NCBI GenBank assembly: GCA_964353135.1
Contig: CAYGTV010000002.1
Span: 67,204 to 131,203, forward strand
DNA length: 64,000 bases
Reading direction: 5' to 3'
From: an uncultured Candidatus Saccharibacteria bacterium
GTDB taxonomy: Bacteria > Patescibacteriota > Minisyncoccia > Phycocordibacterales > UBA918
This document shows, piece after piece, positions 1-25,471 of the stretch (the stretch's first letter is position 1; each line of letters starts with the position of its first letter). The notes beneath the pieces were generated by a model that saw only the letters and a program-made list of their open reading frames with translations, was not told the origin of the DNA and did not search any database. The position numbers and the translations under genes were made by a program.

Positions 1-89
1 GTGGTGACGAGAATCAAATTGAATCTAGGTATATAAAACTAAGGTTTGACCAATTAAAAGAAAAATCTATTGCTCATCAACAAGAAAAG

Positions 90-1172
90 GTGAAAGAAGA
101 ACAGGAAAGAAATCAAAAAGAAGAGGCTGAAAGCGCAATACGCGAAGCTGAGATTAAGGAGGAAGAAAAGAAAAAGAAGAAACTAGGAGCTGGTTTTTCT
201 GCTTTTGTATGGATTTTTAGTTTTGTAATAATTTGGAGCAACATTGATTGGGCAAAATCAGTTGGTTTCGATTCAAGTGAAGAAGCTACTCAGGGCTTAA
301 CCGAACTTTTGACGTACTCAGTAATACACATTATTTCTATTTTCTTTGTGTTGGCTAGAGGTAAAAAAATTGACAGACAAACAGAATACTTAGAAGGAGT
401 TAAACCTAAAAGATTGAAAAGTAGCTTCAACATACGTCTTTTAATTGTCTTGTTACTTATCGGAATTATTGTATGGACGATATCACCCATCTTCAACAAT
501 TCACGAGAGGAAGATGTATCAGTGTTCATAAACGATGTAGTAGAAGGAACATCAAACAGCGAAAATCAGGAGCTGGTTAGTGTTATACGAAACTTCAGGG
601 ACTCGATGAGTAAAATAGAGCAAACAACCCTACCAAACACAATGAAATTGTTGGATTCTGATTATTTAGAATACTCGTCTTACTCAACAATTATGAACGT
701 TAGACGTATCAAAGATCTATCCGATAAGGCCTCTCAAGAACAATTACGTCTGCCGTTAGCAAGGAATGAAGTTGTGTCAGAATTTATAGCGGAAGTTAAA
801 AACTCAACGCTTAGTTTAGAGGAGAAGAATGCATTAATAGAACGTATAGCAAAACCTCTAAGCGAAGAAACCATGGCAAGAATCGTAGCTTCAGAAGCAT
901 ATTATGATTCTATTTATGATTTATATAATTTTCTAGAGATTGAATACTATAACTATAAACTTGAAAGAGATACGCTTGGAGGATTTGAAATTATTTTTTC
1001 ATCAGAAGAAAACACGAGAAACTACAATGAATTAATTGAACAACTCAATATCAAGGCGGCAGCACTTGATGTAGCAACATCTAATGAAAACTCTTATATT
1101 CAATCAGGTTTAGATTCAAGCGGTATTGATATGACTACTGAAGAATTTATAGAAACTATGTACGGAAACTAG
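90..1172 (+). CDS. Hypothetical membrane protein with a Lys/Glu-rich N-terminus and 2-3 TM helices; the ORF is open to the window start so the true N-terminus may lie upstream
   Basis: Long ORF in very AT-rich DNA; predicted TM segments (FSAFVWIFSFVIIW, LIVLLLIGIIVW); no recognisable catalytic motif; no in-frame stop between position 1 and 90. Confidence 0.45.
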   Translation: MKEEQERNQKEEAESAIREAEIKEEEKKKKKLGAGFSAFVWIFSFVIIWSNIDWAKSVGFDSSEEATQGLTELLTYSVIHIISIFFVLARGKKIDRQTEYLEGVKPKRLKSSFNIRLLIVLLLIGIIVWTISPIFNNSREEDVSVFINDVVEGTSNSENQELVSVIRNFRDSMSKIEQTTLPNTMKLLDSDYLEYSSYSTIMNVRRIKDLSDKASQEQLRLPLARNEVVSEFIAEVKNSTLSLEEKNALIERIAKPLSEETMARIVASEAYYDSIYDLYNFLEIEYYNYKLERDTLGGFEIIFSSEENTRNYNELIEQLNIKAAALDVATSNENSYIQSGLDSSGIDMTTEEFIETMYGN

Positions 1173-1192
1173 CCGCCCTTCCCCGCCCTTCA

Positions 1193-1221
1193 TTTTGTGG
1201 GGCCCCGGCATCCCCACAAAA
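1193..1221. terminator. Bidirectional hairpin TTTTGTGGGG-loop-CCCCACAAAA between convergent genes, nested in a GC-rich 90-nt element (1171-1259)
   Basis: Perfect 10-bp inverted repeat read from the sequence; outer 8-bp stem AGCCGCCC/GGGCGGCT. Confidence 0.5.
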
Positions 1222-1278
1222 CAAAGCTTCGTAGGCGGTGGAGATAAGGTCGGGCGGCTTCGGCAGTAACTTATAAAA

Positions 1279-2970
1279 TTAATCAGGCACTCCTTCTCTA
1301 TTAGGGTTATTGATCCAAACTTCAATTTCATCAATAAATAGCCAAATGTCATCATCTTCAGGCTTCACATAGTCTTGTTCTTCTGGATCTGATCCAAGAG
1401 TTAAAAAAATATCATTCAGCCATTTTGGTTTGTTGTTAGACCTTTCAACATTCAAACCTGGCAACCAACATTCCAACTCTCCGCACGGAACAATGAATAC
1501 ACCAAACAATTTAAGCTCATTCAAAAACCAAATAACTTCATCTTGATCAGTAGCTTGAAAAGCTTTAATGCCTAACTTTTTGATTTGTTGCCTATCAATT
1601 TGATCTGCTTTTATTTTTATTCGATTTCTTGTTTCCTTCAGCCCATTAAGTCTTACCTCCTCACAATGTAGAAGTGGCCAAACACACCTGAATTCATCCC
1701 CACATATAACATCAAAATCCATTACTGCTACTGCTGGTATTCCAAGCTTTCGAAGTGGAGCTATTATTCTTGGTATTTGTTGCCAGCTGTGAGCATTCAT
1801 AAATAGTACGTCTTCTGCTCCTCGACCAATATCTAAAAGCCTAACGTTTACCTCTTCATATACAGCTCTATCGGAGTCTGCCTCAGTAACAACAACACCT
1901 CTGTGAAAAAGCGCCCTGAGAACATTAGTTGAGCGAAGTAACGGGTCTTGCATCATTTGGGTAATCACTAGCGGTTCTACGGACCTCGCAGTAGAGACAC
2001 CATCAATGTACGTTAGACGAACCAGCCTTACATTACTGTATGATTGTATACACCCCATTAGAAAATCTGAACTATGTGTAGCAACAATCATTGAAGCATC
2101 TCTCTCTCGGACAGTCGACGTTAAAAATTTACCAACACGTCTTGCTAAGGTGGGATGTAAAAATGCCTCAGGTTCATCTACCAAAAGAATCTTGTGAGGC
2201 AAACTCATTGCAGCTGAAACTAACCCAATTGAAGTTCGTAGTCCATCACCTAAATCTGATACTAATGGTGACTTACTATGAAACCTTCTAGATTCAGCAC
2301 CCAATCCTTGTTCTATATCAGAATCTGGCTCATCATCACTAATCCTGACTCTAAAAGAACGCATTCCAGTTGGATCAATAGTGAAATATTTTCCAAATGC
2401 CTCTTCAGTAAATTGACGTACTTTACCTCGAGCATCATCATCTGCAAACAAGGCCCACAGATGGTTTTTGGGATAACCTTCAAGAGGACCAGTTTCTTTT
2501 GGATCAACTAAATCAAAACGAGTTCTACCATCTAGTCTCAAAGTAAAAAGTTTTACGAAGTTAGATAAAATTGGATTTCTAAACCGAACCTTATCTCCGA
2601 ACCAAGAAACTAAAGACGGTTCATGCACCTGCTGATGTAAAGCATTCTCACCAGTCCTAATTACGGGACGAGCTATCCAAAAATGTTCAGGCTGGGCTAT
2701 TTGATTCTCAGGGGGTTCAGTTTGATGAATCTTCATCATTGCTTCAAACTCCTCAAAAGTATCAGGATATATGATCTCAATTTCGTCGAAGACCTTTAAT
2801 ACTGGATTTGCACCAGAACAATATTCTTCGATCTCTCGTAAAGCTAGACTTTTACCAGAATTATTTGGACCAACAATTACTGTTACGTTTGTTATACCAA
2901 TATCCAAAGGATCAGAGCCTGGTTTACTACCAACTTTAAATTTTAGACTTGAAAGGTTTAGTTTGGACAC
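1279..2970 (-). CDS. OLD-family ATP-dependent endonuclease: ABC-type ATPase (AAA_21-like) fused to a C-terminal TOPRIM nuclease domain; candidate antiphage defense protein
   Basis: Walker A GPNNSGKS; OLD-typical Walker B LLVDEPEAFLHP; TOPRIM-like VVVTEADSD ... VAVMDFDV (E then DxD); about 560 aa like class 1 OLD proteins; the gene is AT-rich relative to neighbours. Confidence 0.7.
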   Translation of the reverse strand: MSKLNLSSLKFKVGSKPGSDPLDIGITNVTVIVGPNNSGKSLALREIEEYCSGANPVLKVFDEIEIIYPDTFEEFEAMMKIHQTEPPENQIAQPEHFWIARPVIRTGENALHQQVHEPSLVSWFGDKVRFRNPILSNFVKLFTLRLDGRTRFDLVDPKETGPLEGYPKNHLWALFADDDARGKVRQFTEEAFGKYFTIDPTGMRSFRVRISDDEPDSDIEQGLGAESRRFHSKSPLVSDLGDGLRTSIGLVSAAMSLPHKILLVDEPEAFLHPTLARRVGKFLTSTVRERDASMIVATHSSDFLMGCIQSYSNVRLVRLTYIDGVSTARSVEPLVITQMMQDPLLRSTNVLRALFHRGVVVTEADSDRAVYEEVNVRLLDIGRGAEDVLFMNAHSWQQIPRIIAPLRKLGIPAVAVMDFDVICGDEFRCVWPLLHCEEVRLNGLKETRNRIKIKADQIDRQQIKKLGIKAFQATDQDEVIWFLNELKLFGVFIVPCGELECWLPGLNVERSNNKPKWLNDIFLTLGSDPEEQDYVKPEDDDIWLFIDEIEVWINNPNREGVPD

Positions 2971-3070
2971 CTGGACATCTTATCATCTACAAGAAAATTA
3001 TGTATCTCATACAATATTTGGTTCCAACACTCGCTAACTAGGGGCACCACATAAGGCGATTACGCTACAG

Positions 3071-3108
3071 AACCAAAAACAGCTTTCTGCTGAAAGCTGT
3101 TTTTGGTT
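3071..3108. terminator. Rho-independent terminator hairpin AACCAAAAACAGCTTTC/GAAAGCTGTTTTTGGTT
   Basis: 17-bp perfect stem with flanking T/A runs; sits between the pil operon 3' end and the OLD gene 5' end. Confidence 0.55.
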
Positions 3109-3123
3109 TGATCTGTATAGATA

Positions 3124-3633
3124 CTACTGGCTTAGTTCGGGGACCAGTACCTCATCTCCAGCTGACTCTTCTAGAGGGGTCACCTCGGCTGCCGGCTCCT
3201 CGATAACAATCTCCTCTCCTGGTTCTACAGACTCTTCTTCTGTTACAACTGGGGTACTAGTGGCGGTCGAGGTACTAACCTCAGCAATTGTTGGTTCTGG
3301 AGGTGCTGCTGGTGTTGGCGCAACACTTCCGGCAATGGTTCCAAAATTGGTCGCTCGGATCTCAAACACCGTAAGTGCTTGGTCTACCAGTTCAGCCTGG
3401 TAGCGTGGATTTGCGATGACTATTTCTGTATCAGTTGCCCCGCCATCACGGTTAGAGAGATAGGTATACCCGTTCCAGACTGCTATACCGATGACGATAC
3501 AGCAAGCAACCCCAATACCAATAAACCAGTCTCGTTTTGGATGAAGGATTTTTACTTGTATGTGACCTGAACCCGATTTTGATTTAAATAGGTTTCGCGC
3601 CATTTGCTTGATTTGTTGCGTTGGATTACTCAT
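3124..3633 (-). CDS. Hypothetical bitopic membrane protein with an acidic, Pro/Thr-rich C-terminal tail; last gene of the pilM-N-O operon
   Basis: One TM (WFIGIGVACCIVIGIAVW); 8-nt overlap with the upstream PilO-like gene implies co-transcription. Confidence 0.45.
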   Translation of the reverse strand: MSNPTQQIKQMARNLFKSKSGSGHIQVKILHPKRDWFIGIGVACCIVIGIAVWNGYTYLSNRDGGATDTEIVIANPRYQAELVDQALTVFEIRATNFGTIAGSVAPTPAAPPEPTIAEVSTSTATSTPVVTEEESVEPGEEIVIEEPAAEVTPLEESAGDEVLVPELSQ

Positions 3634-5826: not shown

Positions 5827-6441
5827 TCACAGTTTAAGCCACACGTAGAGTACTACCAAAACGGCAAATACCACACTGGTGACTCCAAGAGACCGCCGGG
5901 CATAGGTCAGCGCTCGCGGTCCAAACCAATAGGTGCACAGCCCTACAACCGAGTATCTAAATCCACGACCTACCAATGAACCTATTAAAAACCAAACAAT
6001 ACTTCCCTGGGTTATACCAACAACCCACGCGGTCATAGTGTACGGGATTGGTGTGACTGCCCCTACCAGTGTGACTAAAAGCGTATTTGAAGTGTCCATG
6101 GTAGCTGTTAGTATCACAAACTGTTCTTGGATACCCGCTGTCATCATCGATTCCAAGAATCCAAAAAAGTATCGAGCGAGAAACAGGGCTACCACACCAC
6201 CGAGTATCGAAGTTAGCAGTGTGACGACAACAATTAATCCTGCCCGGCTACGGTTTGCCAAAATAGCAGCCACCATAAATGGATCGGTAATAATTGGGAT
6301 CGGCAGAGCTGACTCTACAAAAGAAATAAGTCCTACCACTAGCAACCCCGAACGGGACTCCATCAATGTTTGTGCTCGCGTTACTGTCCTCGTGTTGAGG
6401 ACTTTCTCTACGTGAGTATCAAGTGTTGTCGGCTCAATCAT
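5827..6441 (-). CDS. DedA/VTT-domain family membrane protein
   Basis: FVESALPIPIITDPFMVAAIL motif region and multiple TM helices. Confidence 0.5.
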   Translation of the reverse strand: MIEPTTLDTHVEKVLNTRTVTRAQTLMESRSGLLVVGLISFVESALPIPIITDPFMVAAILANRSRAGLIVVVTLLTSILGGVVALFLARYFFGFLESMMTAGIQEQFVILTATMDTSNTLLVTLVGAVTPIPYTMTAWVVGITQGSIVWFLIGSLVGRGFRYSVVGLCTYWFGPRALTYARRSLGVTSVVFAVLVVLYVWLKL

Positions 6442-6442
6442 A

Positions 6443-7207
6443 CTAATACAATCGAGTCCCAGCAGGCAGTTGGTTGGATGGATTCAAAAGTGCAAACACC
6501 CCACCCTCTTCCCCCGCTAAAATCATCCCTTGGCTTTCGAGTCCTTTTATCTTCCTTGGTGCGAGGTTTGCGATAAATGGACACTGCGTTCCAACCAGTG
6601 TTTGTTCATCTTCGAAAAACTCCCGAATCCCAGAAACAATTTGACGAGGTTGCTCCTCACCAAGGTCCACAGTTAGTTTGAGTAACTTATCTGCGTTTTC
6701 AACCACCTCTACCGCCATGATGGTGCCCAATTTAATTTCAACCGCTGCAAATTGCTCAAACGAAATTTCATTTGATTCAGCCTGTTCTTCGCCTGGTATA
6801 GTTTGTGGTTCCAGCATATTTTTTTGTTTAGTTAAGTAAGATTCTAGAATTAGTGCGGCAGCGGCAGCGTCAGTTTGACCATTGCGCCCAGTGATGGTTG
6901 CTGCTTGCTGGGTCGTCATCTGTTCGGGCTCTAGATGAATTGGCATCGGGAGCTGCAATGTTAGATCGGTGATAAATGACTCAATATTAGTTTGGACAGC
7001 ATTTGGCGCACCATCTAGATTAAGGGATTGTCCAATCACAACTTCTGTCACAGATTTCTCTTCAATCAAAGCAATAATTGTTTTCAATAATGACTGATCG
7101 TTTGGAATCACACCATGAGGAAAAGCCATCACGCCTGACTCATCAGTTAGTGCCAATCCTACTTTTTTAGTTCCATAGTCTATTCCCATGAGTCGCATAG
7201 TTTTCAC
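6443..7207 (-). CDS. ruvX: RuvX/YqgF (RuvC-like pre-16S rRNA nuclease / putative Holliday junction resolvase) fused to a C-terminal CsaA/Myf-type tRNA-binding domain
   Basis: N-terminus MGIDYGTKKVGLALTDE (YqgF signature); C-terminus VEIKLGTIMAVEVVENADKLLKLTVDLGEE...LAPRKIKGLESQGMILA matches the tRNA-binding (EMAP/CsaA) fold. Confidence 0.65.
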   Translation of the reverse strand: MKTMRLMGIDYGTKKVGLALTDESGVMAFPHGVIPNDQSLLKTIIALIEEKSVTEVVIGQSLNLDGAPNAVQTNIESFITDLTLQLPMPIHLEPEQMTTQQAATITGRNGQTDAAAAALILESYLTKQKNMLEPQTIPGEEQAESNEISFEQFAAVEIKLGTIMAVEVVENADKLLKLTVDLGEEQPRQIVSGIREFFEDEQTLVGTQCPFIANLAPRKIKGLESQGMILAGEEGGVFALLNPSNQLPAGTRLY

Positions 7208-7223
7208 AGTTTAGCATGTAGAC

Positions 7224-7264
7224 AAAAACCCGGCGAATTCATATATGAATTCGCCGGGTTTTTG
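7224..7264. terminator. Bidirectional terminator AAAACCCGGCGAATTCATA/TATGAATTCGCCGGGTTTT
   Basis: 19-bp perfect palindrome with A-run upstream and T-run downstream. Confidence 0.6.
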
Positions 7265-7269
7265 TTTGT

Positions 7270-7340
7270 GCTCTCACCAGGAGTCGAACCTGGAGCTCCG
7301 GTACCGCAAACCAACGTTTTATCCATTAAACTATGAGAGC
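7270..7340 (-). tRNA. tRNA, anticodon loop UUGCGGU, so GCG (Arg) tentatively; the anticodon stem has two G-U pairs
   Basis: Reverse complement folds as a cloverleaf: acceptor GCTCTCA/TGAGAGC, D-arm GTTT-AATGGATA-AAAC, T-arm CCAGG-TTCGACT-CCTGG. Confidence 0.7.
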
Positions 7341-7376
7341 CTGATAGTAAAAACCATCAACGTCCAACAATATAAC

Positions 7377-7847
7377 CTAAAACCCAAATAATTCCAGCAC
7401 CTTAACTAAAAACGGTTCCATTAGTTCTTCCTCTACCAGCCTCTCTTTAAGGATATCTTCAATCTCATCAATATGATCTGGTGGTAGCGGCATGACAATC
7501 AGTGGCATCAGACGTTGTTCAGACTTGACCAGCAACTGTGGACCACGAGGATCTTCTTCATCTATAAAATACGAGTCAAGGGTTGAGAATGGGTAGTGTC
7601 GATCTTCAATTTTTATTCCTCTGACTGTGATTGCATAGGGAATAATAGCTGGACGCTTGGCTGCTGACACTGCCAGTGCTCCACCTGACAGTCCGATCAA
7701 CAGTGCAAACAGCACACTGTCAAACATAACTGCTGCCACTACAAGCGCGAGAATAATAATCCCCAAAGCAAAAAACCAGTCATTCCCTTTTTCGACATGA
7801 TGATGCTGTGGCGCCTCCCAAGTTATCGATCGTAGTGCTGGTTCCAT
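7377..7847 (-). CDS. Hypothetical membrane protein
   Basis: ORF with two predicted TM helices near the N-terminus; no motif recognised. Confidence 0.4.
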   Translation of the reverse strand: MEPALRSITWEAPQHHHVEKGNDWFFALGIIILALVVAAVMFDSVLFALLIGLSGGALAVSAAKRPAIIPYAITVRGIKIEDRHYPFSTLDSYFIDEEDPRGPQLLVKSEQRLMPLIVMPLPPDHIDEIEDILKERLVEEELMEPFLVKVLELFGF

Positions 7848-10339: not shown

Positions 10340-11626
10340 ATGAGCGACTTCAGACAAACTGTTAAAAAAATTATCCCGAAAAAAGTATTTACTTTTTTCC
10401 AACCAGCTTACCACTATGCTCTGGCTTATATTGGTGCTGTGAAATACCGACACCCATCACGCGATATTGTTGTAATCGGAGTTACCGGTACAAAAGGAAA
10501 ATCAACTACCACCGAAATACTCGCGCAAATATTGCGCGGCGCTGGATACAAAACCGCTTCACTTTCAACTATTCAGTTTACTTACGGTGAAGAAGTTGAA
10601 CGGAATCTATTTAAGATGACCATGCCAGGACGGTATTTTACCCAGCAGTTTTTGCGCCGGGCGGTTGATGCCGGCTGTACGCACGCCGTAATGGAAATGA
10701 CATCAGAAGGTGCCAAACAATACCGACATAAATTTATCGATGTTGATGCTCTACTGTTTACCAACCTTACCCCAGAGCACATCGAATCACACGGCTCGTT
10801 TGCAAACTACAAAGCAGCCAAATTGCGACTAGCTCAAAATGTAGCCGATAGTCCAAAACGACCACGTACCTTAGTGGCAAACGTCGATGATGAGCACGGT
10901 CAAGATTTTCTTAATTTTGAAGTTGAGCACATCCTCCCCTACCGACTCAACAATCTGACCTTACACTCACTGCAAAAAGATTCAGTGACAATGGTGATCG
11001 GAGGAGTGACTATCCGCGTGCCAATCGTTGGAGTATTTAACGTGTACAACACCCTAGCGGCAATTACCTATGCAAGATCGATTGGGATTTCACTTGAATC
11101 AATCCGTGAAAGCCTGGCAAAATTACCACCAGTGGCTGGACGAGTCGAACAATTTCATTCACCCTCAGGTGCCACAAAGAAAATCACCGCAGTTGTCGAC
11201 TACGCCCACACACCCGATTCACTGACCCAGCTATACCAAGCGTTTGCAAATAAATACAAAATTGGAATCCTGGGGAACACCGGTGGTGGGCGTGACACTT
11301 GGAAACGACCTGAGATGGGGGCGATTGCCGAGCAGTATTGCGACCATGTCATTCTCACCAACGAGGACCCATATGATGAAAACCCTCAATCTATAGTCGA
11401 CCAGATGCGCGACGGAATGAGTGAGGGAGCACCGGTTGAGATCATAATGGATCGCCGGTCAGCTATTAAACACGCCATCAACATCTGCCCAGAAGGTGGC
11501 TATGTGTTGATCAGTGGAAAAGGTACCGATCCATACATCATGGGCCCAAACGGCACCAAACAAGAGTGGAGTGACGCGCAAGTGGTGCGAGAGCTACTTG
11601 GTGAACTTGCTCTAGCTACCGACTAA
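10340..11626 (+). CDS. Mur ligase family protein (MurE/MurF-like catalytic and C-terminal domains, no N-terminal domain)
   Basis: P-loop VIGVTGTKGKSTTTEIL; Mur ligase middle-domain and C-domain motifs; 428 aa. Confidence 0.6.
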   Translation: MSDFRQTVKKIIPKKVFTFFQPAYHYALAYIGAVKYRHPSRDIVVIGVTGTKGKSTTTEILAQILRGAGYKTASLSTIQFTYGEEVERNLFKMTMPGRYFTQQFLRRAVDAGCTHAVMEMTSEGAKQYRHKFIDVDALLFTNLTPEHIESHGSFANYKAAKLRLAQNVADSPKRPRTLVANVDDEHGQDFLNFEVEHILPYRLNNLTLHSLQKDSVTMVIGGVTIRVPIVGVFNVYNTLAAITYARSIGISLESIRESLAKLPPVAGRVEQFHSPSGATKKITAVVDYAHTPDSLTQLYQAFANKYKIGILGNTGGGRDTWKRPEMGAIAEQYCDHVILTNEDPYDENPQSIVDQMRDGMSEGAPVEIIMDRRSAIKHAINICPEGGYVLISGKGTDPYIMGPNGTKQEWSDAQVVRELLGELALATD

Positions 11627-12605
11627 ACAAATTGTAGAACCGATCCTGCAAATTGATCATCCAGGCGTCATTTAAAAATGACGTTGATATATGGATGTAT
11701 GTCATAACCACAAATAGCTGCAGATTGAGTAGAAGATACGCCAAGTCCGGGGTATCTGGCTGAAAAAAATAGTACGCGGCCAGTACAAACGGAGCAGTCG
11801 CTAACACGTTGTGAAAAATAAAAGTCCAATACACCTTTACTCCCCGTTTCTTCATTTCAACCAGATAAAATAGCAACCAGGTCATAAAGTGGTACCCAAC
11901 CACAAACACGTACATATAAATATAAGCCGGTGGTCCATACACAGACACCAAAGTAGTAGTACCGACAATCACCAACAGTAAAAAGATTGTTAATTTTGTG
12001 AACCTATACTTTAGCCACGCTATGAATAGTGTCAGTAGACTCAATCCAAACCCAACCCAAAAAATCTGACTAAAGGCTGCAAGTCCGAGGTAATACTCTT
12101 CAAATATAAATGTCACTGCCATAGTACTGACGTTAGCAAACTGAAGATTCTGATCAAAGAAAAAGGTTTTATCGGGCACTGAGTAGGTTAGTAGCGCAAT
12201 CACAAAAATAGCCAGTGCACACAAATGTAACAAAGGGACTATGTAACCCGTTTGTCGTTCAATCAACGTTTGTTCGTTAAGTAAGCCGTGGAGTAAAAAA
12301 TATAAAAACCCGATAAACAACGCCGCCACAAACCCGACAAAATAAAACAGGGTGAAAGAGAGTCCAATCGAAAATAGTGTTAAAAATATAAATGATCCGA
12401 CATACTGCCAGGGGTTTGGTTTTCTAAAAAAACCTTTGATCTGGTAGTAAAAACCAACTAAAAAATGCCCGTAGCCAAACACAATAATTGCCACCAGAAT
12501 CGCTTGCCATTGCTGGACACTGTTTCCAAAAATCGCATATGTCTGGGCAATACAGATAATTACCCCCAGAAAACTATATAGCTTATTTGCAATGTAGGTG
12601 GTCAT
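11616..12605 (-). CDS. Hypothetical polytopic membrane protein
   Basis: About 9 predicted TM helices; no motif recognised. Confidence 0.4.
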   Translation of the reverse strand: MTTYIANKLYSFLGVIICIAQTYAIFGNSVQQWQAILVAIIVFGYGHFLVGFYYQIKGFFRKPNPWQYVGSFIFLTLFSIGLSFTLFYFVGFVAALFIGFLYFLLHGLLNEQTLIERQTGYIVPLLHLCALAIFVIALLTYSVPDKTFFFDQNLQFANVSTMAVTFIFEEYYLGLAAFSQIFWVGFGLSLLTLFIAWLKYRFTKLTIFLLLVIVGTTTLVSVYGPPAYIYMYVFVVGYHFMTWLLFYLVEMKKRGVKVYWTFIFHNVLATAPFVLAAYYFFQPDTPDLAYLLLNLQLFVVMTYIHISTSFLNDAWMINLQDRFYNLFSR

Positions 12606-24817: not shown

Positions 24818-25471
24818 ATGGAAAAATTTACTCCCCAAGAAAGCATAATACATAATCAGAAAAAGATTGAAGACCAAGAACATATGAGCAGTGGTCAAAA
24901 ACTTATTAGGTATGTACTAGCTAACATCAAACCCACTGAACATATACAAAGGTATGGAAATAAAAGCAACGAGCAAAGTAAACGAGAAACACTCAATCAA
25001 TCTGTCGCTGAACACGTAGCTTCTATGACAGAAATCCTTGAATTTCTTGTATCTCAAGAAAGCGAGGGAACCTTTGCCGAGCTCGATACTGAAAAAATGC
25101 GAAAAATGATTAGGTTCCACGATAGACATGAAATTCTTATTGATGATTTGGTATACAAAAGTGACCAATACCGGGCAGAGGAAGCTATTGCTGAGCATAC
25201 CAACGCTGATTTTTTGAAAAAGGTTGGTTTTTCTGATGCGCCAGCTATAATGGAAGAATATCAACTGGGAGAATCTGATGAGGTTAAAATAGTGAAAGCA
25301 ATAGATCGATTAGAAGCGTATACAACAAAGATGCATGGGGACCCGAGATCAATTATAGAAAACCGAGTAAGCGATGCTATTGAAATAGCGGAAAATATCA
25401 AACACATTTCCCCAACCCTATACCACGCCAGTATTTTAGCGATTCGCTGGCTACAAAAACAGAACGAGTAA
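24818..25471 (+). CDS. HD-domain phosphohydrolase (YfbR-like 5'-deoxynucleotidase family), tentative
   Basis: AEHVASM (His), RFHDRHEILIDDL (HD...D) motif spacing. Confidence 0.4.
   Translation: MEKFTPQESIIHNQKKIEDQEHMSSGQKLIRYVLANIKPTEHIQRYGNKSNEQSKRETLNQSVAEHVASMTEILEFLVSQESEGTFAELDTEKMRKMIRFHDRHEILIDDLVYKSDQYRAEEAIAEHTNADFLKKVGFSDAPAIMEEYQLGESDEVKIVKAIDRLEAYTTKMHGDPRSIIENRVSDAIEIAENIKHISPTLYHASILAIRWLQKQNE

Follow-up and report, generated by a model that had tools for sequence, protein, structure and literature searches.

The 64,000-nucleotide stretch of DNA analysed here, which lies on contig CAYGTV010000002.1 of an uncultured Candidatus Saccharibacteria bacterium and is referred to throughout as the window, carries close to its left end a gene for an OLD-family ATPase-TOPRIM nuclease (hereafter OLD). 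As judged from sequence, this gene is carried as cargo on a small element inserted at the 3' end of a tRNA-Arg(TCT) gene, beside the pil operon. We consider it probable that the locus represents an intact single-gene nuclease of the Class 1 type, forming accessory cargo at the attachment-site (att) proximal end of an integrative element of ~6.7 kb in a Patescibacteria chromosome. It adds a divergent member to an already known type of candidate defence nuclease and is not a new system.

Domains and catalytic residues of the OLD protein

An earlier note on this DNA, made from its letters alone, had described a standalone OLD nuclease gene at 1279-2970 with its characteristic motifs, and both the open reading frame (ORF) and the motifs were found where it had placed them (Table 1). 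Pfam searches of the product return significant matches to AAA_21 (3e-13), AAA_15 (3e-10) and OLD-like_TOPRIM (PF20469; 4.5e-6, 27.5 bits against a cut-off of 23.2), the last covering the entire 67-position model at residues 354-420, with no match to DUF4435 at E<=1, which bears out the proposed pairing of an ATPase with a TOPRIM/OLD domain. The top PADLOC model is Old (6e-20), followed by the AriA, NsnB and GajA models, whose matches are mostly confined to the Walker B region, and no NCBIfam model scores above its cut-off. The ORF is full-length and collinear with its homologues across 99-100% of its length. The AlphaFold2 (AF2) model is confidently folded, with a predicted local distance difference test (pLDDT) score of 93.7, and places three helices (residues 425-487) between the DxD and GELE motifs.

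Alignment of the protein with 66 homologues sharing 42-61% identity (67 sequences) reveals complete conservation of the ATPase residues G34, P35, N36, G39, K40, S41, D265, E266, P267, H272 and H299, as well as of the TOPRIM and metal-binding residues E363, D367, D418, D420 and E500. E498 is kept in 65/67 sequences and K514 in 55/67. Among Protein Data Bank (PDB) sequences, the OLD protein of Thermus scotoductus (TsOLD, 6p74) is the top match, both by phmmer (5e-8), with an alignment that spans the Walker B motif, the TOPRIM glutamate and the DxD motif, and by the family profile (9e-9), which detects no other OLD class at E<=1e-3. Foldseek on the AF2 model likewise ranks TsOLD first (7e-13), followed by Eco8 OLD and GajA, with low TM-scores of 0.36-0.44 that denote domain-level, not rigid-body, agreement with the solved OLD structures.

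Comparison of the alignment profile with the Old protein of phage P2 by hhalign gives a probability of 92.6% and an E-value of 4.7e-7 over 320 columns at 23% identity. Residues E363, D367, D418 and D420 align with E398, E402, D453 and D455 of P2 Old and with E377, D381, D431 and D433 of TsOLD, while the Walker B, D-loop and H-loop residues match E276, H283 and H310 of TsOLD and D299, H306 and H332 of P2 Old. The GELE motif (498-500) is set on the GDIE motif of P2 Old (541-543), and K514 on K550/551. Mutational studies have established that TsOLD requires K34, E276, H283, H310, E377, D381, D431 and D433 for ATPase or nuclease activity, and that P2 Old needs K37, D299, H306, H332, E398, E402, D453, D455, D541, E543 and K550, its activity being abolished by mutation of D541, E543 or K550-551 (PMC7049728). 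The product of ORF 1279-2970 is thus a genuine OLD-family ATPase-TOPRIM nuclease with a complete predicted catalytic set. E. coli YbjD, recently proposed as a Class 1 OLD, was tried as a further relative and reached an hhalign probability of only 3.9%; it is therefore not a close relative of this clade.

Members of the clade, ~563 amino acids (aa) in length, are recorded in Alphaproteobacteria, Bryobacterales and Patescibacteria, and at least one Patescibacteria homologue is already present in NCBI under the label 'AAA family ATPase'. A tblastn search of a phage database with the OLD protein yielded a single match, with 25% identity, in a Mycobacterium prophage.

The integrated element and its insertion site

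An exact-protein look-up identified a 12.8 kb contig from a second assembly (L001), which matches the window exactly across all 7,258 bases that the two share and reaches 5.5 kb past its left edge. The gene order on this contig is OLD, the membrane protein TM433, p279, a rolling-circle Rep, p70, a large serine integrase and tRNA-Arg(TCT). The element measures ~6.7 kb, extending from ~3049 leftward to the tRNA. An islet at 1-3110 had been proposed, but the island runs ~3.6 kb further left, beyond position 1, and the membrane-protein ORF listed at 90-1172 is cut by the window edge, its full product on L001 being 433 aa. Rep is a 260-aa HUH rolling-circle initiator (REP_ORF2-G2P 8e-20; PHROG rolling-circle initiator 5e-28), and the integrase is a 508-aa protein of the large serine type (L001 9406-10932; Resolvase 8e-35, Recombinase 2e-10, Zn_ribbon_recom 2e-4; PHROG integrase 1e-86). 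No family was assigned to p279.

The final 41 nucleotides (nt) of the integrase gene, corresponding to ~13 codons, overlap tRNA-Arg(TCT) (L001 10892-10966) on the opposite strand; because these codons read as the 3' part of the tRNA in reverse complement, the attachment site seems to lie inside the 3' end of the integrase gene. At the opposite end, in the gap that separates the OLD start from the pil terminator, nine bases (3041-3049) match the 3' end of tRNA-Arg(TCT) in the same orientation, and the TAGGGGC within this remnant can pair with all seven bases of the 5' acceptor strand of the tRNA. The remnant was spotted by eye, and we estimate the chance of such a match in the 153-nt spacer at ~0.002. 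It is supported by comparison with the closest relative (L002), in which tRNA-Arg 3' fragments occur at the matching place. A direct-repeat search returned no long att repeats, and a local alignment of the whole tRNA to the locus missed the nine-base remnant.

The insertion site was compared across 53 relatives found through PilM, all Patescibacteria and mostly labelled Paceibacteria, Kaiserbacteria or Nomurabacteria, with a best identity of 81%. These PilM matches place the host itself among the Patescibacteria, and probably in the class Paceibacteria. OLD, the membrane protein, p279 and Rep are absent everywhere in the fetched loci of these relatives, integrase matches are limited to three loci (26-27% identity, ~4-7 kb upstream of pilM), and no element gene lies downstream of the pil operon (pilMNO) in 53/53. 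Among the 20 relatives scanned for the tRNA, 16 have tRNA-Arg(TCT) downstream of the pil cluster on the same strand, and in 13 it falls within ~1 kb of the cluster end. The remnant, together with the element-free site in relatives, identifies the region from ~3049 to the tRNA as an insertion at the tRNA 3' end.

Base composition also sets the element apart. Against the 50 other ORFs of the window (GC 0.450 +/- 0.026; GC at third codon positions, GC3, 0.411 +/- 0.061), the OLD gene has a GC of 0.385 (z -2.4) and a GC3 of 0.252, and the membrane-protein gene a GC of 0.334 (z -4.4), so that the two genes lie 2-4 standard deviations off the background in GC and GC3. The AT-richness of both genes had already been recognised in the earlier note, and the horizontal acquisition it suggested agrees with this deviating composition and with the absence of the OLD gene from the syntenic site in 53/53 relatives. 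Two further ORFs of the window are low in GC relative to the mean of 0.450, namely 24818-25471 (0.381) and 11616-12605 (0.393).

The carrier belongs to a wider family of elements. Its backbone of p279, Rep, p59/70 and integrase, at 7452-10932 on L001, recurs in other loci (L146-L159), with identities among related copies of 62-64% for the integrase, ~70% for Rep and 56-62% for p70. Rep homologues number 393, many on contigs of 4-6 kb, and the few with a named source are Pacebacteria or Campbellbacteria. The same overlap of integrase and tRNA is found in L146 (1197-2751), where the integrase is 64% identical and the tRNA is instead tRNA-Glu(TTC). Left of p279, L152 encodes a metallo-beta-lactamase-fold protein and two membrane proteins of 162 and 223 aa, the larger sharing only a 66-aa N-terminal domain with TM433, while L154 encodes an HTH-SocA_Panacea (antitoxin-like) pair and small ORFs. 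All three of these backbones lack OLD. Because related copies keep the backbone with other cargo, OLD is regarded as accessory cargo and not as part of the backbone. No second copy of the element genes is present in the window.

At least three members of the OLD clade adjoin large serine recombinases, among them the two closest homologues with genomic context (L055 and L056), an adjacency that fits spread of the clade on mobile elements. In L055 (2397-5983), a p70-like protein (p67), an integrase (46% identical) and OLD (60% identical) follow one another, with a gap of 70 nt between integrase and OLD; this would be the order expected of the element studied here once circularised. In a further locus (L057), the OLD homologue at 6001-7692 has a GC of 0.456 in surroundings of 0.652, an apparent additional horizontal acquisition of the clade, with no mobile-element genes called nearby.

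The element was also considered as a prophage. This origin is not supported, because a scan of viral contigs with Rep found no relatives and none of the element's PHROG matches is to a capsid, portal or Zot-like protein.

Two hairpins accompany the OLD gene. The earlier note had read them as bracketing the OLD and membrane-protein genes; both structures are present, but one lies between the two genes and the other ends the pil operon. The hairpin at 1171-1259 has folding energies of -43.6 and -47.8 kcal/mol for its two strands (z -2.35 and -2.53) and is probably a bidirectional terminator. The possibility of a repeated or mobile motif was rejected, as this hairpin is unique in the window and has no copy in any fetched locus; Rfam contains no family for it. 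Its GC content of 63% stands within an island of 33-39% GC, a composition suggesting an origin unlike that of the flanking genes. For the structure at 3071-3108, the folding energy is -29 kcal/mol, with z-scores of -8.1 and -7.4 for its two strands.

Several relatives show unusual sequence at the same site. In L002 (12604-13038), the pil operon and tRNA-Arg(TCT) are set apart by a spacer that contains a 208-bp tandem repeat in 2.1 copies that are 95% identical, each unit beginning with ~19 nt of the tRNA 3' end and finishing with a terminator-like hairpin. Rfam assigns these repeats no family beyond the tRNA and sub-threshold chance matches, and they look like integration scars or a mini-element at the tRNA-Arg(TCT) site. 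In L009 (12828-14911), L012 (4553-7187) and L013 (12655-15418), ~3 kb of unrelated genes separate the pil operon from tRNA-Arg(TCT). From reading of the sequences, these spacers hold, respectively, kinase-like and transposase-like genes; MBL-fold and Fic-like genes; and genes for MarR-like, fasciclin-like and membrane proteins. On this evidence the site resembles a variable hotspot.

Table 1. Coordinates of the OLD gene, its motifs and the associated features (window positions unless a locus is named).
Feature	Position	Strand	Basis or remark
OLD-family ATPase-TOPRIM nuclease gene	1279-2970	-	563 aa, GTG start; cargo gene of the integrated element
Walker A / P-loop G34-PNNSG-K40-S41 (GPNNSGKS, residues 34-41)	2848-2871	-	Invariance in alignment; aligned to TsOLD P-loop
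Walker B D265-E266 and D-loop H272 (DEPEAFLHP, residues 265-273)	2152-2178	-	Invariant residues
H-loop H299	2074-2076	-	Invariant in alignment
TOPRIM core, residues 354-420	1711-1911	-	Pfam PF20469
TOPRIM E363 and D367 (VVVTEADSD, residues 359-367)	1870-1884	-	Invariant residues
TOPRIM D418-x-D420 (MDFDV, residues 417-421)	1711-1719	-	Invariant residues
Second metal-site motif G497-E498-L-E500, plus K514	1429-1479	-	Alignment conservation; hhalign onto P2 Old
5' untranslated / putative promoter region of the OLD gene, within the element	2971-3037	-	Between tRNA-end remnant and GTG start
Remnant of tRNA-Arg(TCT) 3' end, CTAGGGGCACCA, proposed attL junction	3038-3049	+	Nine-base identity and comparison
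pil operon terminator (perfect 17-bp inverted repeat, A and T tracts)	3071-3108	.	Chromosomal flank, outside the element
GC-rich (63%) 89-nt extended hairpin separating OLD from the convergent membrane-protein gene	1171-1259	.	Folding
TM433 membrane-protein gene, 3' part (389/433 codons)	1-1172	+	Full gene on L001 6087-7388
HTH - TM418 - AAA_13 loci	L059 233-4011; L060; L061; L062 157-3846; L063; L064

Gene context, membrane protein and competing explanations

OLD classes are assigned by gene context (PMC10568477, PMC12392090). Locally, the neighbours of OLD are the membrane protein, p279, Rep and the integrase, with no reverse transcriptase among them, no helicase domain within ~4.2 kb upstream, where L001 ends, or within ~6.8 kb downstream, and no retron RNA family from Rfam in 1-3300, where only sub-threshold chance matches were obtained. 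A survey of 85 OLD-homologue loci, in which 453 flanking ORFs within 4 kb of the OLD gene were clustered, revealed no helicase, reverse transcriptase or other partner that recurs; the most recurrent flanking family, a large serine recombinase, occurs in only 4/85 loci, and the next in three. Since no such partner is found in the locus or recurs among the homologue loci, and the locus has no Rfam retron RNA, OLD is, by gene context, a single-gene nuclease of the Class 1 type, and its description as a standalone gene without a Gabija-type helicase held up. Class 2 (Gabija) was rejected, as the hairpin and the convergent membrane-protein gene lie downstream of OLD and no helicase occurs nearby or recurs in homologue loci. 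Class 3, the retron effectors, was rejected in turn, there being neither a reverse transcriptase nor an Rfam retron family, and the NCBIfam retron Eco8 effector model giving 27.7 bits against a cut-off of 250.

Several points weigh against reading this locus as a defence nuclease carried by an integrative element. The left half of the element is known from the second assembly and not from the window, and the att junction consists of a nine-base identity with comparative evidence, no excision product or circular junction having been observed. Even the closest relatives that have been characterised lie very far off in sequence (17% identity for TsOLD, an hhalign E of 5e-7 for P2 Old), and the best stretch of the PADLOC Old model covers residues 258-425 only, so that automated callers might report no system. 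No experiment ties this OLD clade to defence, and OLD-family ATPases outside defence exist, such as, reportedly, archaeal Cran1 (PMC12796447). The gene had also been credited with its own promoter, but a sigma-70 consensus scan gave no match on the minus strand in 2971-3070, and the terminator upstream is the sole basis for suggesting independent transcription.

Among the competing explanations, OLD may serve the element itself, through stabilisation or addiction, replication or sibling exclusion, rather than protect the host against phages. Its position beside the att site, the serine recombinases adjoining its closest homologues, the toxin-antitoxin-like cargo of other backbone copies (SocA_Panacea, for example) and the non-defence OLD ATPases just mentioned all point in this direction. 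The three related backbones without OLD show, however, that the element needs no such gene, and the element genes are absent from most OLD-homologue loci; moreover, exclusion of competing elements would in practice amount to defence of the P2 Old type. We regard this explanation as unlikely.

A second explanation concerns TM433, whose gene starts 129 nt before position 1 of the window. The protein matches no Pfam, PHROG or PADLOC family, its AF2 model reaches a pLDDT of 67 as a whole and of 75-93 within the C-terminal domain, and Foldseek with this model returns nothing below E 0.3. By the positive-inside rule, its K/E-rich N-terminal domain would be cytoplasmic and its helical C-terminal domain of ~225 aa would lie outside. 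Only six homologues were found. In 6/7 TM433-homologue loci, a 64-65 aa XRE/CapH-like HTH protein, the TM433 homologue TM418 and an AAA_13 protein follow one another as an operon; the last, of 733-754 aa, is matched by PADLOC to its defence candidate PDC-S06 (3e-232) and resembles PrrC in its C-terminal region.

OLD and TM433 could on this basis form a two-gene system, with TM433 acting as sensor, anchor or effector, as the earlier note had allowed. The two genes are adjacent and both AT-rich cargo, and the location of full-length TM433 homologues directly upstream of another ABC-type ATPase defence candidate in 6/7 loci hints that the protein works with ABC-type ATPases. Against this, the genes do not form an operon, since they converge and a strong hairpin stands between them. 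The co-occurrence check found a TM433 homologue in 0/85 OLD loci and OLD in 0/7 TM433-homologue loci, and the related element in L152 carries a different membrane protein at the same position, sharing the 66-aa N-terminal domain, without OLD. TM433 is thus not supported as a conserved OLD partner; it persists as a minority possibility in view of the recurring adjacency to ABC-type ATPases, and a two-gene system appears quite improbable. More speculatively, and with similarly little expectation on our part, proteins of the TM433 type might be a reusable membrane module that pairs with different ABC-ATPase nucleases, OLD here and PDC-S06 elsewhere. The locus would then exemplify a membrane-coupled two-component OLD variant, shuttled between ultra-small bacteria by undescribed tRNA-integrating rolling-circle elements of ~5-7 kb with swappable defence or toxin-antitoxin cargo.

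A loss of function, with OLD as a decaying relic among the cargo, would accord with the missing consensus promoter and with a small streamlined genome in which cargo may be transient; the full-length, collinear ORF, the intact catalytic residues and the confidently folded model make this very unlikely. The least credible alternative, a fused PARIS protein (AriA and AriB in one polypeptide, Class 4 OLD), draws on the PADLOC AriA (3e-17) and AriAB (2e-11) matches and on the same ATPase-then-TOPRIM order, but these matches are confined to the Walker B region (residues 237-309; AriAB 261-309), no DUF4435 (the AriB-type TOPRIM) is detected whereas OLD-like_TOPRIM clears its cut-off, and the family profile detects neither AriA nor AriB among PDB sequences at E<=1e-3, leaving this suggestion of the earlier note with hardly any standing.

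Proposed activity, related systems and significance

Returning to the preferred reading of OLD as accessory cargo of Class 1 type, we infer by analogy an anti-phage defence activity, together with its trigger and target. By homology with P2 Old, TsOLD and the Vibrio cholerae OLD (Vc OLD), the protein would be expressed constitutively. The ABC-type ATPase head (K40, D265/E266, H272, H299) may sense, or be licensed by, an infection-related cue, and ATP binding or hydrolysis would gate a two-metal TOPRIM nuclease site. In this site, E363, D418 and D420 are predicted to hold metal A and D367, E498 and E500 metal B, with K514 as a putative general-acid or stabilising residue. The nuclease could then attack DNA, which TsOLD and Vc OLD nick or degrade, or the anticodon arm of a tRNA, the target of P2 Old. 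Such cleavage might stop a rival phage or mobile element, perhaps at the expense of the cell.

P2 Old (Class 1; UniProt P13520) offers a close parallel in organisation. Its metal-A, metal-B and lysine residues all align with those of OLD here, and neither gene has a partner. The old gene of P2, used in lysogenic conversion, is dispensable and lies at the end of the prophage, and OLD is likewise accessory at the end of an integrated element. The P2 old locus is a known hotspot of other defence genes (PMC10568477). The sequence similarity is nevertheless remote, detected by hhalign, and the carriers differ, a tailed prophage for P2 Old and a rolling-circle/serine-integrase element of ~6.7 kb here. 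P2 Old is triggered by RecBCD inhibition and acts on the anticodon arm of tRNA-Thr (PMC12445682).

TsOLD, also Class 1, is the best solved relative by both sequence and fold, sharing the ATPase motif variants that include the D-loop and H-loop histidines. It differs in length (528 aa against 563 aa, 17% identity) and in its Walker B motif, where Glu replaces the Asp of the D-E pair seen here. Global superposition is poor (TM 0.36-0.38), probably owing to differing domain orientation. Vc OLD is a single-gene bacterial member of Class 1 whose defence requires both ATPase and nuclease residues; it has nickase activity and is inhibited by the phage protein Oad1 (PMC12392090). GajA (Gabija, Class 2) and the retron-Eco8 OLD (Class 3) share the ATPase-TOPRIM fold (Foldseek 6e-11 to 5e-9), with PADLOC GajA matches of up to 1e-13. 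They differ in that OLD here has no GajB-like helicase, reverse transcriptase or non-coding RNA nearby, and the family profile misses both proteins at E<=1e-3.

For the carrier, the nearest known counterparts are the pSAM2-type integrative elements of actinomycetes, which replicate by rolling circle and integrate at tRNA genes by means of a tyrosine integrase; the RepSA Pfam family takes its name from pSAM2. Like them, the element has an HUH replication initiator (with a weak RepSA match) and is integrated at a tRNA 3' end. Unlike them, it employs a large serine integrase, measures only ~6.7 kb, resides in a Patescibacteria host and carries no detected transfer gene. The literature search found no published description of this element family or of the association between TM418 and PDC-S06.

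Class 1 is the least understood of the OLD classes, with defence activity demonstrated only for P2 Old and Vc OLD, and DefenseFinder detects it in ~0.45% of genomes (PMC12392090). The earlier note had presented OLD-type defence as barely described in ultra-small bacteria; this overstates the novelty, as large-scale surveys of defence repertoires in the CPR bacteria already exist, with the repertoires of Paceibacteria reportedly the most diverse (PMC12259885). The understanding of OLD protein function is unchanged by this locus, and its main value lies in providing candidates for experiments. It adds to the least understood class a divergent clade of ~563 aa with a complete catalytic set, and it documents a compact family of integrative elements in Paceibacteria, a group in which little is known of mobile elements or of interactions with phages. 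Two by-products may be of interest for research on CPR mobile elements, namely a tRNA-integrating rolling-circle/serine-integrase family with swappable cargo and the association of TM418 with PDC-S06.

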